In this document: positions 5,507 through 59,980 of the stretch, piece by piece | Numbering within the stretch: position 1 is the stretch's first letter | Layout of the letters: the number at the start of each line of letters is the position of its first letter | DNA from: Candidatus Adlerbacteria bacterium | GTDB taxonomy: Bacteria; Patescibacteriota; Minisyncoccia; Phycocordibacterales; SBAW01 | NCBI GenBank assembly: GCA_037135035.1 | Contig: JBAXLB010000003.1 | Location: forward strand, 3,548-67,547 | Direction of reading: 5' to 3' | DNA length: 64,000 nucleotides | The notes under the pieces: generated by a model | Databases searched by the model: none | The model's input: the letters and a program-made list of their open reading frames with translations, nothing else | What the model was told of the DNA's origin: nothing | Made by a program: the position numbers and the translations under genes

Positions 5507-5610
5507 ATTGTTTTGTTTTTCTTGTTAGAAACCCGACCTCGTTTCTTAGTCTTCTAGACAATGGCTATCCTATCATATAAGGGCTTTATTGTCAAACTCC
5601 GCTACCCACC

Positions 5611-6276
5611 CTACCACTCAGGCAGGGGCACCACTTCGGTAACCTCCATCTGCGGGGCAGGTATCACGCACAGCACTTTGCCCGCAATTTTAAAGTCTTC
5701 TTTCAAGATAATGGGCTTAAATTTTGGGTCTTTTGACTCGGGCCAGAGTATTGTCATGCCGTCGCGTTTTTCAAGCCGCTTAACCGTGACCATGTCGTTT
5801 ACAATAGCGGCCACACGGTCGCCAGTTTCTGCGTGGTCGGTAAACCGGATAAGCACGTAGTCGCCGGTGTTAATTCCAGCGTCGTTCATACTGTCACCAA
5901 TAGCGCGCACCGCAACGATGTCGCCGTCCTCCTCTTCAACAATACGTTTGTCGACTTCTAAAAATTCGTCCACTTCCTGCTGGGCAAACACCGAAAGGTC
6001 ATCGCAGCCAACGTTTGCTATAACGGGGATGCTCACTGTCCCCCACGCCCCGTCGACGTTGCGCAGTTCGATATTACGTGCGGCGTTTTTGCGGCGAACG
6101 ATATAACCTTTGCGCTCTAAAATGTCCAAGTATTGCGTGACCGTGCGGAGCGAACTAAACCCCAAACTTTCACGAAGCTGTTCGAGCGTTGGGGACATAT
6201 TTTCTGTCCGGAGATATTCCCGCACCACATTAAGCACCCGCTGCTGCTTGAACGTTAAAAGGTTTTGGATATACAT
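5611..6276 (-). CDS. lexA: LexA repressor (S24 peptidase)
   Basis: N-terminal wHTH, AVRAIGDSM (Ser-Lys dyad region), C-terminal S24 fold; ATG at 6276 preferred over GTG at 6282. Confidence 0.85.
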   Translation of the reverse strand: MYIQNLLTFKQQRVLNVVREYLRTENMSPTLEQLRESLGFSSLRTVTQYLDILERKGYIVRRKNAARNIELRNVDGAWGTVSIPVIANVGCDDLSVFAQQEVDEFLEVDKRIVEEEDGDIVAVRAIGDSMNDAGINTGDYVLIRFTDHAETGDRVAAIVNDMVTVKRLEKRDGMTILWPESKDPKFKPIILKEDFKIAGKVLCVIPAPQMEVTEVVPLPEW

Positions 6277-28267: not shown

Positions 28268-28300
28268 GTGTACCTACCATTGTACACACCAAATATGATG

Positions 28301-28375
28301 CGCGGCCAACCGGACTCGAACCGGCAACCTCTTCCGTGACAGGGAAGCGCTCTAACCAAATTGAGCTATGGCCGC
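28301..28375 (-). tRNA. tRNA-Asp (anticodon GTC)
   Basis: GCGGCCA acceptor, anticodon arm CTTCC-CTGTCAC-GGAAG, T-loop TTCGAGT. Confidence 0.85.
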
Positions 28376-28439
28376 AAATGAGGAACATCGCCTACAGTAG
28401 CGCACTTGGCGGTTATTTTCAAATTACTAGTGGACTGGC

Positions 28440-28568
28440 TTTCGGTCAAATTCTGCCGTCGCAGAATTCGCCTGCAGCCCCGGCTCGCGGTTTTGCAAGT
28501 GCAAAACATCGCTGTGCCGTGCAAGTCCTTACGCGCCATGCATTGGCATGGCGCTCCCTCACACTTTG
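28440..28568 (-). ncRNA. conserved structured RNA-like element, copy A (three hairpins), between tRNA-Met and tRNA-Asp
   Basis: core 28484-28512 is identical to copy B (55957-55985); the hairpin-2 stem differs from copy B but stays paired (gaattctgc-gacggc-agaattt versus aatgtgcgc-gacggc-gcatatt). Confidence 0.5.
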
Positions 28569-28642
28569 TGTCGATGGAAGGACTTGCACCTTCGACCTTG
28601 GCTTTATGAGTGCCATGCTCTAACTACCTGAGCTACACCGAC
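28569..28642 (-). tRNA. tRNA-Met (anticodon CAT; elongator or Ile2-type not resolved)
   Basis: GTCGGTG acceptor, loop CTCATAA, unusual T-loop TGCAAGT. Confidence 0.7.
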
Positions 28643-28712
28643 GTACAGACACGCTAGCATTTTATCTCCTTTGCTTCAACCACATATCCGGGGCCGGGTT
28701 TGGCTTGAGATC

Positions 28713-28742
28713 AGAAAACCCGGCCTTATGCCGGGTTTTCTA
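28713..28742 (-). terminator. terminator hairpin downstream of tRNA-fMet
   Basis: aaaacccggccttatgccgggtttt. Confidence 0.6.
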
Positions 28743-28747
28743 TATTT

Positions 28748-28821
28748 TGGTTGCGGGGCCGGGATTTGCACCCGGGTCCCAAGGTTATGAGCCTTGTGAG
28801 GTACTACTCCTCCACCCCGCT
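28748..28821 (-). tRNA. initiator tRNA-fMet (CAT), CCA encoded
   Basis: 1:72 mismatch, anticodon stem with G-C pairs, loop CTCATAA, 3' end GGCCCCGCAACCA as in bacterial initiator tRNA. Confidence 0.85.
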
Positions 28822-50452: not shown

Positions 50453-50595
50453 TATTTGAGGTGAAATTGGAGGGATTGAGGATGTGAGGGAGGGATTCGG
50501 TCACAAGTATTTTTCTGCTGAAAAATCTCGCGACCCCGCCTCCCCACCCAAGGTGGGTCCGGCTTTCGAATCCCAACCACTATTCCGACATAAAC

Positions 50596-50626
50596 AAAAA
50601 ACAGGTGCCGAAGCACCCATTTTTTG
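50596..50626. terminator. terminator hairpin downstream of tRNA-Ser
   Basis: aaaaaacaggtgccgaagcacccatttttt. Confidence 0.55.
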
Positions 50627-50631
50627 TTTTG

Positions 50632-50717
50632 CGGAGAGGGAGGGATTCGAACCCTCGAGAGGTTTACCCTCTACCTCCTTAGCAAGGAGGCACAATCGAC
50701 CACTCTGACACCTCTCC
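50632..50717 (-). tRNA. tRNA-Ser (anticodon GCT), long variable arm
   Basis: GGAGAGG acceptor, anticodon arm CCTCC-TTGCTAA-GGAGG, T-loop TTCGAAT. Confidence 0.85.
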
Positions 50718-55827: not shown

Positions 55828-55901
55828 GTGCCTGTAGCTCAGTTGGTTAGAGCTCCGAGCTTATACCTCGGCGGTCCCTGGTTCGAGTCCAGGCAGGCAC
55901 A
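55828..55901 (+). tRNA. tRNA-Ile (anticodon TAT, UAU)
   Basis: GTGCCTG acceptor, anticodon arm CCGAG-CTTATAC-CTCGG, T-loop TTCGAGT. Confidence 0.8.
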
Positions 55902-55947
55902 CAAAAGTTACAAAGACCTGCCCTGCGGCAGGTTTTGTACTTTTGTG
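55902..55947 (+). terminator. long hairpin (terminator-like) immediately after tRNA-Ile
   Basis: caaaagttacaaagacctgcc-ctgc-ggcaggttttgtacttttg. Confidence 0.5.
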
Positions 55948-55949
55948 TG

Positions 55950-56030
55950 AGCCGGAGCGATGTTTTGCACTTGCAAAACCGCGAGGCAGGGTCGTGCGGC
56001 AATGTGCGCGACGGCGCATATTGAACGCCT
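55950..56030 (+). ncRNA. conserved structured RNA-like element, copy B
   Basis: core gcgatgttttgcacttgcaaaaccgcgag is identical to copy A (reverse strand, 28484-28512); second hairpin differs from copy A but pairing is kept. Confidence 0.5.
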
Positions 56031-56111
56031 GACCACAAAAGACATCTCATAAAAATAATTCCGTGCTATTGTGCGGAGCGGATAACAACGGCACATAGAA
56101 GGAGAACCGCC

Positions 56112-57074
56112 GTGATTGCTCTTCCAAAGTTTAATAACACCTTCAAGGGTGTTTGCTTCCCCTACCCCGCGTGGGTGGCGGGCGGAATCTTCAAGACGAG
56201 CAAGCAGATGATCTGGGCGCTCAAGCACCATATCATCGGCGAATGGGGCTCGATCGAAACCGAAGCCTCAAACGGTAACGGTGGGCGTGACTATTTTGCC
56301 CACTATGTCGAAGTCGGTGGTGTTCGGGTGCTTATGTACACGCAGAACTCGCGCGGCATCCCCAACCCGGGCATGACTTACATCGAGGAACGTTTCGCGA
56401 TGGTCTATCACGAGTACGAAGACGCGAACTTTCCTCTCATCCTCAATGTCTCGGGCAAGAACGTGGCCGACACGCTCGAGCTGATGTGGCGGGCAGCACA
56501 ATGCGGCTTCAAGGTCGTAGTGGTAAGCGGTGCGTGCCCCAATAAGGGCAACCAGCCCATTCTCTGCTACGACCAGGAAGCGGTCAGTGAACTGTTCGAG
56601 CGTGCCGAAAAAGAAATCGGGCCTTCGAATGTCATTTTCCTCTGGAAGGTATCGACCGGTATGCCGCGGCCGATTCTTGCCCACAATCGTATGTGTGTTG
56701 GGCGTTCGAAAGTCTTCGACGGCATCGTAACGGGAAACGCTGTTCCGAACACCTTCGACTATCTTCCCGACGGCACGACAACCATCATGACGGACAAGCA
56801 CGGCTTGATCCGTGGCGCTATGGCCGGACCCGCGATCCTACCGATGGCGCTCGACCACACACAGTTTTGTTCTTGTGGCATACCTTCAAAGAAGATCGTT
56901 GTTGGATGCGGCGGCATCTCGGGTGGTGAATCCGGGATGAAGCACATGCGGGCGGGGGCGAGCTTCGTCCAAACCCACAGCGCTTTTCGCGAGTCGGGCG
57001 AAGACCCTGACTTCATGCGCGAGCTCAACCGGAAGTTGTTCAAGCGTCTCGAACAGGTTCCTGCCGCAGCTTGA
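56112..57074 (+). CDS. dihydroorotate dehydrogenase-family flavoprotein (GC3-rich, foreign-looking)
   Basis: DHOD-like motifs LNVSGKN, VSGACPNKGN, LWKVSTGM, VGCGGISGGESG; GTG start; strong GC3 bias unlike neighbours. Confidence 0.6.
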   Translation: MIALPKFNNTFKGVCFPYPAWVAGGIFKTSKQMIWALKHHIIGEWGSIETEASNGNGGRDYFAHYVEVGGVRVLMYTQNSRGIPNPGMTYIEERFAMVYHEYEDANFPLILNVSGKNVADTLELMWRAAQCGFKVVVVSGACPNKGNQPILCYDQEAVSELFERAEKEIGPSNVIFLWKVSTGMPRPILAHNRMCVGRSKVFDGIVTGNAVPNTFDYLPDGTTTIMTDKHGLIRGAMAGPAILPMALDHTQFCSCGIPSKKIVVGCGGISGGESGMKHMRAGASFVQTHSAFRESGEDPDFMRELNRKLFKRLEQVPAAA

Positions 57075-59603: not shown

Positions 59604-59980
59604 GGGAGTGAAAGGCCTAGACAATACACATACGTATCTGCATGCAAAGGAGAAGTCCAGACCTTCTTAAAAATCTGGAAAACCTAACTGCAAAAACAGT
59701 TGCTTCGCCGTATTTTTCGGCGAACGATTTCGCCTTCGCTTACGCCAAGGCCTAATCGCATTCACTCTTCCCTACTCTGCGGGTTGAGACCGGGTGTTAT
59801 ATAGCAGAGTTATTACTTCAGGAACCATTCTGGCCTGAAGATGAAACTAAAGAGTTGCAGGGTGTCATGATTTCGTCCGCTTCGCCCATGCCACGCTAAA
59901 GAAACAAAAAGCGAACTAGCTTTTGTAGAATTGCTTATACGACTGTATTGCACGAGGGTTCGAATCCCTCCACTTCCACC
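59604..59980 (+). ncRNA. ssrA: tmRNA (SsrA), 377 nt
   Basis: acceptor GGGAGTG/CACTTCC with a G3-U70 pair, T-arm GAGGGTTCGAATCCCTC, putative tag ORF ...GCGAACGATTTCGCCTTCGCTTACGCCAAGGCCTAA (ANDFAFAYAKA*); directly downstream of smpB. Confidence 0.85.

Follow-up and report, generated by a model that had tools for sequence, protein, structure and literature searches.

A tRNA-linked structured RNA module in a Candidatus Adlerbacteria contig, from an apparently undescribed Patescibacteria family

Introduction

What is the non-coding element that recurs behind tRNA genes in a contig of a Candidatus Adlerbacteria bacterium? The stretch analyzed here, hereafter the window, comprises 64,000 nucleotides (nt) of contig JBAXLB010000003.1 (GenBank assembly GCA_037135035.1, positions 3,548 to 67,547). 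The original prediction placed two look-alike stretches in it, copy A on the minus strand between tRNA-Met and tRNA-Asp and copy B on the plus strand after tRNA-Ile, and took them for a conserved, structured, RNA-like element and not a chance repeat. Sequence, ARAGORN, and Rfam confirm both stretches at their positions and strands, the flanking genes being called by ARAGORN and Rfam alike (tRNA-Met at 28568-28642 and tRNA-Asp at 28300-28375, both on the minus strand; tRNA-Ile(UAU) at 55828-55902 on the plus strand). The view of a conserved element also holds: its core occurs at more than 200 loci, with compensatory changes and a G.U pair that fixes the strand. Judged from sequence comparison, the element belongs to a large family of folded RNA modules of Patescibacteria that seems not to have been described before.

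The copies in the window

Copies A and B share an identical 29-nt core, GCGATGTTTTGCACTTGCAAAACCGCGAG, as originally predicted, and an exact search finds it at just these two places; there is no further occurrence in the window even when 3 mismatches are allowed (0 expected from 100 shuffles). Both copies fold well below shuffled sequences (z = -5.3 for A and -7.4 for B), the tRNA-sense strand better than its complement. The core lies in a hairpin that we call H2, whose uppermost stem has 7 bp and an ACUU tetraloop, not the 8 bp first given, which would leave a loop of only 2 nt. The internal loop of H2 is ACA/GA in copy A and GGA/GA in the family consensus. Folds of the next hairpin, H3, agree with its first description, with a common GACG loop on stems that differ between A and B and stay complementary. 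The hairpin ahead of the core had been treated as one feature of both copies and is two: H1 of copy B resembles a terminator and has both an A-tract and a U-tract, and H1' of copy A is an internal hairpin without a U-tract. The CACAAA said to open each copy is present, but it consists of the final tRNA bases plus the beginning of the trailer.

The window holds more than the two copies first reported. A covariance model, R1, for which 61 distinct copies were used, gives copy A 91 bits (28436-28519) and copy B 87 bits (55950-56035) with filters off, and it adds a third, miniature copy (copy C) behind tRNA-Ser (E = 1.4e-6). Behind a further tRNA-Met gene lies a remnant (28688-28707) that may be read as what a lost copy left behind, an H3 terminus followed by a decayed duplicate of the tRNA 3' end. 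By eye, it matches the intact element behind the same tRNA type at locus L073 at 18 of 19 positions; MAFFT gave no alignment. We rejected the idea that A and B are the terminal inverted repeats of a single mobile element, which had been named as a refutation of the original prediction, because the 27 kb between them is core housekeeping DNA encoding a gatA-like amidase, ligA, recG, malic enzyme, aspartate kinase, and others.

Family size and distribution

Relatives that share the gene order malic enzyme-recG-tRNA-Ile-DHOdh-ftsH-smpB-tmRNA (45-57% protein identity) have the tRNA-Ile gene and lack the element, so homologs were sought by DNA pattern. Scanning DNA collections with GATGTTTTGCNNNNGCAAAACCGC gave at least 119 loci in metagenomes, most of them from groundwater and sediment samples, with sites such as Hainich and Rifle well represented, and 82 loci in a collection of one genome per species; nearly all of the core-bearing loci belong to Patescibacteria. 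R1 upholds matches in Adlerbacteria, Kaiserbacteria, Nomurabacteria, "Paceibacterota," metagenome-assembled genomes labeled Saccharibacteria, and Magasanikiibacteriota, and it discards the few pattern matches in Chlamydiae, Acidobacteriaceae, Gammaproteobacteria, and Cytophagales. The covariance-model search that had been suggested at the outset has returned the third window copy and has upheld the Patescibacteria loci of the pattern scans. Multicopy genomes are among the carriers, with at least eight pattern-bearing loci on one 754-kb contig and seven in Adlerbacteria RYN_387. The best protein matches of the window genes are to Kaiserbacteria and Paceibacterota, which marks the source as a bacterium of the candidate phyla radiation.

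Known families do not account for the element. At the gathering score, Rfam 15 finds only tRNAs and transfer-messenger RNA (tmRNA) in the whole window, and at E <= 10 it finds nothing over H2-H3 of copies A and B, with a weak STnc370 match confined to the H1 hairpin. No description of the element was found in a full-text literature search that covered few subscription journals, and a paper on tRNA introns of Patescibacteria does not mention tRNA trailers or duplications.

Fold, covariation, and strand

H2 and H3 together make up the conserved unit, which is about 85 nt long (module lengths of 84, 85, and 86 nt) and has a 2-3-nt G-rich linker between the hairpins. Its consensus is AGGCGSAGCGAUGUUUUGCACUKGCAAAACCGCGAGCCGGGGUCGCGAGCGA-N-UUU-N-GCGACGGC-N-AAA-N-UCGACUUGUGACCA. 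From its base upward, H2 consists of 3 bp, a 3x2 internal loop in which GGA, GCA, or ACA faces GA, a further 3-bp stem, an AU bulge, and a 7-bp stem capped by a tetraloop. H3 has 19-20 bp; its lower stem of 9 bp includes two G.U pairs, and above a bulged A follows a 10-bp variable stem under the GACG loop. In an alignment of 61 sequences, 96.8% of the cells are paired, against 81.7% in shuffles and 31-44% in slid controls, and two-sided compensatory cells number 268 against 66 in shuffles. An alignment of 122 model-aligned copies, which is fitted to the model and hence biased toward structure, has 96% of its cells paired, where shuffles reach 75% and slid controls 32-42%. This larger set takes in copies without the search pattern, which makes the upper H2 stem testable, and it has two-sided compensatory changes at 31 of 32 base pairs, those of the upper H2 stem included.

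This pattern of substitution leaves next to no chance for a small protein read from the ATG inside GCGATG (MFCTCKTA...). That ATG follows a GGAG, and the frame of copy A stays open for 57 codons. But the gap between GGAG and ATG is only 2 nt, copy C has no ATG, the module lengths shift the frame between copies, and substitutions are paired in stems rather than arranged by codon; we rejected the small open reading frame on the last two grounds.

One base pair is nearly invariant. It is G.U in 54 of 54 paired cells of the 61-sequence set (7 of the 61 cells are unpaired) and GU in 100 and GC in 7 copies of the larger set; a second pair alternates among GU, GC, and AU. Because of the near-invariant G.U pair, the structure can be assigned to the tRNA-sense strand, and it fits that strand most simply as RNA. 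The same data bear on a site acting as DNA. Such a site could be an operator at which a protein binds the palindrome GTTTTGCA..TGCAAAAC, or it could be single-stranded DNA folded into a recombination site, as with integron attC or the ends of IS200/IS605 elements. The core does contain a near-perfect palindrome, recombination sites that fold as single strands also show covariation with conserved extrahelical bases, and the sense strand of a tRNA gene is usually the lagging-strand template. We nevertheless regard a DNA site as very improbable: a conserved G.U pair together with GU/GC/AU interchange is typical of RNA, the palindromic stem covaries in divergent copies, so its sequence itself is not conserved, and copies in spacers between tRNA genes must be transcribed. 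Nor was a linked HUH transposase or integron integrase seen, and the family has freely varying hairpin stems, flanking repeats, and no fixed short target, which sets it apart from elements derived from IS200/IS605.

Variants of the fold occur. In a subfamily of seven loci (L029, L031, L081, L123, L154, L177, and L197), a conserved insertion of ~75 nt, GAUGAAAAG..CUUUUCAUCCGGUGCC..GGCAGGCGCUAGGU, lies between H2 and H3 and may be an extra domain. In other variants, the upper stem of H2 is unrelated in sequence. The insertion and the exchanged stems point to a modular RNA. Group II intron domains V/VI, the K-turn, box C/D and H/ACA guides, signal recognition particle RNA, 5S rRNA, and RNase P RNA were each considered and set aside; compared by eye with their consensus features, the bulge side, loop sizes, and box sequences do not fit, and none has Rfam support.

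Genomic setting

A tRNA or tmRNA gene on the same strand immediately precedes about 80% of the copies. A same-strand tRNA gene lies within 400 nt upstream in 96 of 125 core matches, at least 23 anticodons being represented, and other copies follow tmRNA, as at L051, L072, L124, L131, and L174. The distance from the tRNA to the start of the core is typically 52-58 nt in what we call type I copies, such as B, and 66-96 nt in type II copies, such as A and C. The stop codon of rpsI precedes four copies. Another four have, 5-7 nt ahead of the unit, a conserved box (TGGTACAAT or GGTATACT) that resembles an extended -10 promoter element. At L049, L100, L095, and L035, a conserved GC-rich region situated ~20-420 nt upstream of the element ends in a TGGTACAAT-type -10 box directly ahead of it; the region has no Rfam match at E <= 0.01. 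The upstream gene is of a constant kind (tRNA, tmRNA, or rpsI) while the downstream genes vary (tRNAs, a DHO-dehydrogenase-like gene, and others), an arrangement unlike that of a riboswitch or 5' leader. Location in a trailer or spacer on the tRNA strand is instead that of RNAs derived from tRNA precursors.

At 15 loci (~8 distinct arrangements), the next tRNA gene starts at most ~31 nt past H3 or the repeat that follows it. This leaves no room for a promoter, and the element at these loci should therefore be part of a polycistronic tRNA precursor. Intrinsic-terminator form is present in H1 of copy B and in the hairpin ahead of copy C and absent from H1' of copy A, and H2 and H3 have no U-tract.

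Locus L076 (2509-2875, minus strand) carries an array in which four tandem H2-H3 modules, joined by AC..GTGCG linkers, stand behind one tRNA-Lys gene and are followed by the start of a truncated fifth. The modules have diverged from one another through compensatory changes that keep the pairing, and because they diverged in this way, each of them would seem to be under selection.

Flanks that repeat the end of the upstream gene

In every copy, a segment just 5' of H2 (X') is the reverse complement of the last nucleotides of the upstream gene (X), and a second copy of X stands just 3' of H3. In type II, this second copy is an exact direct repeat of the 3' part of the gene, from C56 of the T-loop to 2-3 nt beyond the gene end. 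It reaches 19-23 nt at several Asp, Leu, Asn, and Met loci, takes in the encoded CCA at L066, and measures 13-14 nt behind tmRNA. Type I repeats comprise only the final few tRNA bases plus CAA (CACAAAAG in copy B). Repeats of 10-23 nt are found in 22 of 137 distinct copies, against a maximum of 9 nt with non-cognate tRNAs (~2500 trials). In copy A, the direct repeat is decayed, and GGACT within X' also pairs with AGTCC at 28432-28436. To our knowledge, an X/X'/X layout that tracks the 3' end of the upstream gene has no precedent.

Duplex energies likewise separate cognate from non-cognate partners. For X' with the last 20 nt of the tRNA, they are -15.7 versus -8.9 kcal/mol in type II (p = 6e-15) and -9.2 versus -8.0 kcal/mol in type I (p = 8e-4), and for X' with the flank after H3, they are -9.1 versus -6.9 kcal/mol (p = 1e-9). 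The flanks of the rpsI-linked copies match the last codons of rpsI in the same way, so the flanks track whatever gene is upstream.

X' thus has two predicted partners. With the 3' part of the tRNA attached, the minimum-energy fold pairs X' upstream (-77.6 kcal/mol in copy B, against -65.6 kcal/mol with downstream pairing forced). When the sequence begins after the discriminator base, where an RNase Z cut would leave it, all three window copies are predicted to join the X'/X stem, H2, and H3 in a three-way junction; the trailer of copy A, cut from its tRNA, is predicted to fold as H1' plus this junction.

The complementarity of X' to the cognate 3' end and the two mutually exclusive predicted folds could be those of a cis-acting 3'-end element, in which alternative pairing of X' would govern maturation, stability, or read-through of the upstream RNA, or which would serve as a nuclease entry site insulating downstream genes. 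The position immediately behind terminator-like hairpins and a strand that is always that of the upstream gene would suit such a role as well. We consider it quite unlikely, however, since only some tRNAs have a module and close relatives lack it at the same locus, while promoter-box copies and the internal modules of the array have no upstream gene end as a target. In addition, second terminators are not enriched behind the module, being found in 28 of 167 copies and in 19 of 167 random segments.

The flanks also give the element a partial likeness to the tRNA-like structures found at RNA 3' ends, such as mascRNA, the tRNA-like domain of tmRNA, and those of plant viruses. The 5' and 3' ends of type II copies form a 7-bp acceptor-like stem, for instance at L011, L046, and L073; in the 3' strand of this stem, the discriminator base, and the first bases of the trailer, these copies match the neighboring tRNA exactly. 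Unlike these structures, the element has no T-arm, D-arm, or elbow, its T-loop bases are buried in a helix, and the acceptor-like stems of the window copies are weak or absent.

Turnover and repeat-like behavior

Copies at different tRNA genes of the same genome are 96-98% identical, and the identity is confined to H2-H3. In CAZMIU, it starts at the base of H2 and ends ~3 nt past H3, with H1 and the flanks ~60% identical. This means either cassette-like copying of the module or homogenization of its dispersed copies by gene conversion. Some copies lack H3 (L023 and L045) or are internally deleted (L055), and contig breaks are frequent inside the core. These truncated and deleted copies, the absence of the element from syntenic relatives, the window remnant, and the contig breaks indicate turnover of the family. 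The truncated copy at L023 was considered as an autonomous, protein-coding version and rejected; it merely lacks H3, with no gene inserted.

Such behavior fits the main rival reading, a serious one if somewhat unlikely in our judgment, that the element is a selfish, non-autonomous insertional element without host function. H2-H3, as RNA or single-stranded DNA, would then be recognized by copying machinery acting in trans, which would duplicate target bases at the 3' ends of tRNA, tmRNA, and other highly expressed genes. One module behind at least 23 tRNA species, tmRNA, and rpsI would find an explanation here, as would target-end direct repeats of up to 23 nt running from C56 past the gene end, identity blocks with sharp borders, patchy presence among syntenic relatives, truncated copies and a remnant, tandem arrays, and the many contigs that end within the core; the strongest of these points are the long exact repeats reaching beyond the gene and the sharp cassette borders. 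Yet none of the copies examined has a transposase, integrase, or reverse transcriptase linked to it. Viral contigs are without a copy in two pattern scans, the core pattern giving 0 matches and a junction pattern nine, all discarded by R1. Conserved terminal inverted repeats are missing, and X' is locus specific and not producible by target-site duplication. Gene conversion between old copies could equally give the sharp identity block, and the four array modules at L076, diverged with pairing kept, point to long-term selection on each.

Repetitive extragenic palindromes (REP), bacterial interspersed mosaic elements (BIME), and miniature transposable elements with inverted repeats (MITEs) are bacterial intergenic repeats. 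Like them, the element is multicopy, non-coding, hairpin forming, located at the 3' ends of transcription units, patchy, and assembly breaking. It differs from them in having no family-wide terminal inverted repeats, in its strong covariation and conserved G.U pair, and in being strictly oriented and placed with respect to the end of the upstream gene. A MITE would also have a target-site duplication of fixed length; here, X' and X are locus specific and 5-23 nt long, and the same-genome identity block ends at the H2-H3 borders.

Integrative elements offer a second comparison. Williams is said to have recognized, in 2002, a T-loop class among their attachment sites in tRNA and tmRNA genes. The family shares with such sites a direct repeat of the 3' part of the gene, from the T-loop to or past the 3' end, and tmRNA as a further target. 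In contrast, the flanking repeats are only 130-190 nt apart, and the RNA module fills this interval, with no integrase gene or cargo between them. A fixed attP cannot explain the family, because the module occupies at least 23 tRNA species and has a different repeat at each, matched to that tRNA. Class C group II introns, which sit immediately after intrinsic-terminator hairpins, resemble the element in that position; unlike them, it has no domain V/VI or reverse transcriptase open reading frame, is only ~85-135 nt long, and has no Rfam overlap at E <= 10.

Features of the window and neighboring genes

The coordinates of the copies, their parts, and related features of the window are collected in Table 1.

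Table 1. Copies of the element in the window, their parts, and associated features
Feature	Position	Strand	Basis or remark
Copy A, whole element, type II	28432-28567	-	From tRNA-Met trailer up to decayed 3' closing strand; sequence, R1, fold
Copy A H1' hairpin, GCGCCATGC-CAAT-GCATGGCGC, without U-tract	28533-28554	-	Fold; not flagged by terminator scan
Copy A X' ("anti") segment, AAGGACTTGCAC	28519-28530	-	Complementary to T-loop and T-stem of tRNA-Met (28578-28589)
Copy A H2, contains 29-nt core	28482-28518	-	Stem a, 3x2 internal loop, stem b, AU bulge, 7-bp stem, ACUU loop
Copy A H3, long hairpin, GACG loop, GCA/GAA internal loop in lower stem	28437-28479	-	Fold and R1
Copy B, whole element, type I	55902-56041	+	From tRNA-Ile(UAU) trailer through right-hand CACAAAAG repeat; sequence, R1
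Copy B extended H1	55900-55949	+	X, terminator-like hairpin, and U-tract plus X'; terminator scan, folds
Copy B left X, CACAAAAG	55900-55907	+	Overlaps tRNA end
Copy B terminator-like hairpin	55915-55933	+	Terminator-like site 55913-55936
Copy B U-tract plus X', CTTTTGTGTG	55940-55949	+	Part of extended H1
Copy B H2, contains 29-nt core	55951-55987	+	Core search, fold
Copy B H3, GACG loop	55990-56034	+	Fold and R1
Copy B right-hand X, CACAAAAG	56034-56041	+	Pairs with X' once tRNA is removed (predicted fold)
Copy C, new, type II, miniature	50486-50574	-	Behind tRNA-Ser(GCU); R1 36.3 bits, E = 1.4e-6, at 50498-50564
Copy C X', GGGATTCG	50567-50574	-	Sequence, fold
Copy C short H2	50538-50563	-	Keeps GGA/GA loop
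Copy C H3	50499-50535	-	Lower stem typical of family
Copy C direct repeat, CGAATCCCTCCCTC, 14 nt	50486-50499	-	Duplicates tRNA-Ser 50636-50649
Hairpin of terminator type, A-tract and U-tract present, in the gap from tRNA-Ser to copy C	50592-50630	-	Read from sequence; terminator scan flagged opposite strand
Remnant behind tRNA-Met(CAT) 28748-28821, CAAGCCAAACCCGGCCCCGG	28688-28707	-	Downstream of that tRNA's terminator (28713-28741)
tmRNA, tag ASPYFSANDFAFAYAKA	59604-59980	+	Followed by terminator with A-tract and U-tract; no element behind

Several observations concern the genes beside the element. The tRNA-Ile gene ahead of copy B has a genomically encoded UAU anticodon and is accompanied by recG and the DHO-dehydrogenase-like gene also at L001, L003, L004, L007, and L008; AUA is read in most bacteria by a modified CAU tRNA. 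Among the tRNAs of the window, Ile, Met1, Ser, and Gln have no encoded CCA and run N73-CAA at the 3' end, Asp runs N73-CAT, and Met2 and Thr encode CCA. The gap from copy B to the DHO-dehydrogenase-like gene (start at 56112) contains an imperfect inverted repeat with a lac-operator-like center, GTGCTATTGTGCGGAGCGGATAACAACGGCAC (56062-56093, plus strand), which could be an operator.

Other observations come from loci outside the window. A Kaiserbacteria relative (L003, 1-1152) has a pair resembling a diversity-generating retroelement (RVT_1 fragments and bAvd) ~9 kb from its DHO-dehydrogenase-like gene. At L081 (4841-5039, plus strand), a group I intron (RF00028, 53.9 bits) interrupts the anticodon region of a tRNA-Met gene that ARAGORN missed, and the element follows; we rejected the intron as a part of the element, as it sits inside the upstream tRNA. 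At L051, on a metagenome contig, a LOOT RNA (RF03000, 71 bits; 5511-5629, minus strand) is found ~100 nt downstream of the tmRNA-following element. LOOT RNA is likewise an orphan structured RNA, but its consensus sequence and fold are unrelated to those of the element, and it is not found in the window at the gathering score; it was rejected as the identity of the element.

Discussion

We favor the reading that the element is an RNA module co-transcribed with highly expressed genes, freed by tRNA end-processing, closed by X'/X pairing, stable, and bound to a conserved partner, probably a protein; taken whole, we judge it about evenly balanced between right and wrong. The module would ride on highly expressed genes, mainly those for tRNA and tmRNA, as a same-strand 3' trailer or inter-tRNA spacer, with X' paired upstream while the tRNA is still attached. 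RNase Z would presumably cut at the tRNA 3' end and RNase P at a following tRNA. X' would then pair with the downstream X to give a three-way junction that displays the conserved loops, and the freed module would probably serve as a stable small RNA for a conserved binding partner, a protein most likely, and may act in trans. The tandem modules at L076 and the promoter-linked and rpsI-linked copies favor such a role of the module itself over a purely tRNA-specific role in cis.

Several points weigh against this reading. Its transcription and processing steps are deduced from gene layout, and the terminator-like hairpin in front of type I modules should reduce their transcription. The family is patchy, with absence from syntenic relatives, truncated copies, and a remnant, which would fit a dispensable or selfish repeat equally well. 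Exact repeats that reach 2-3 nt beyond the tRNA end exceed what RNA folding needs, and a single-stranded DNA structure of the same strand would yield similar covariation.

The nearest functional precedents for a processed module are RNAs cut from tRNA precursors. In Escherichia coli, 3'ETS-leuZ is a small RNA cut from a tRNA precursor, and it acts as a base-pairing sponge. In plants, RNase Z is reported to process the transcripts of dicistronic tRNA-snoRNA genes (Kruszka et al. 2003, as cited in PMC12045711). As in these cases, a non-tRNA RNA lies directly 3' of a tRNA or between tRNAs of the same strand, presumably using the tRNA promoter and released by end-processing. The precedents, however, are single loci with a known role (sponge or methylation guide), whereas the family described here is a multicopy ~85-nt fold behind many hosts, with X/X' flanks and a processing that is predicted.

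A bolder reading, which we think doubtful, is that the family represents a new class of genetic element hitchhiking on tRNA and tmRNA genes. Templated spread to the 3' ends of highly expressed genes would write the last 5-23 nt of the host gene beside the module in both orientations, creating a processing-dependent conformational switch that would serve either release and propagation of the module or its action on the host tRNA. If this were true, the switch could, for example, make the module a cis-encoded antisense guide or a quality-control device for the T-loop and acceptor end. The layout also raises the questions of how the sequence of a tRNA end gets copied in both direct and complementary form and whether tRNA end-processing triggers a refolding switch.

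The finding has a practical side as well, since the element breaks metagenome assemblies beside tRNA genes and is usable as a lineage marker. A well-supported family outside Rfam 15 enlarges the very small set of known non-coding RNAs of the candidate phyla radiation (CPR, Patescibacteria). These bacteria have tiny genomes with little non-coding DNA, yet some of them keep about ten copies of the element behind their tRNA genes, sometimes four in a row.

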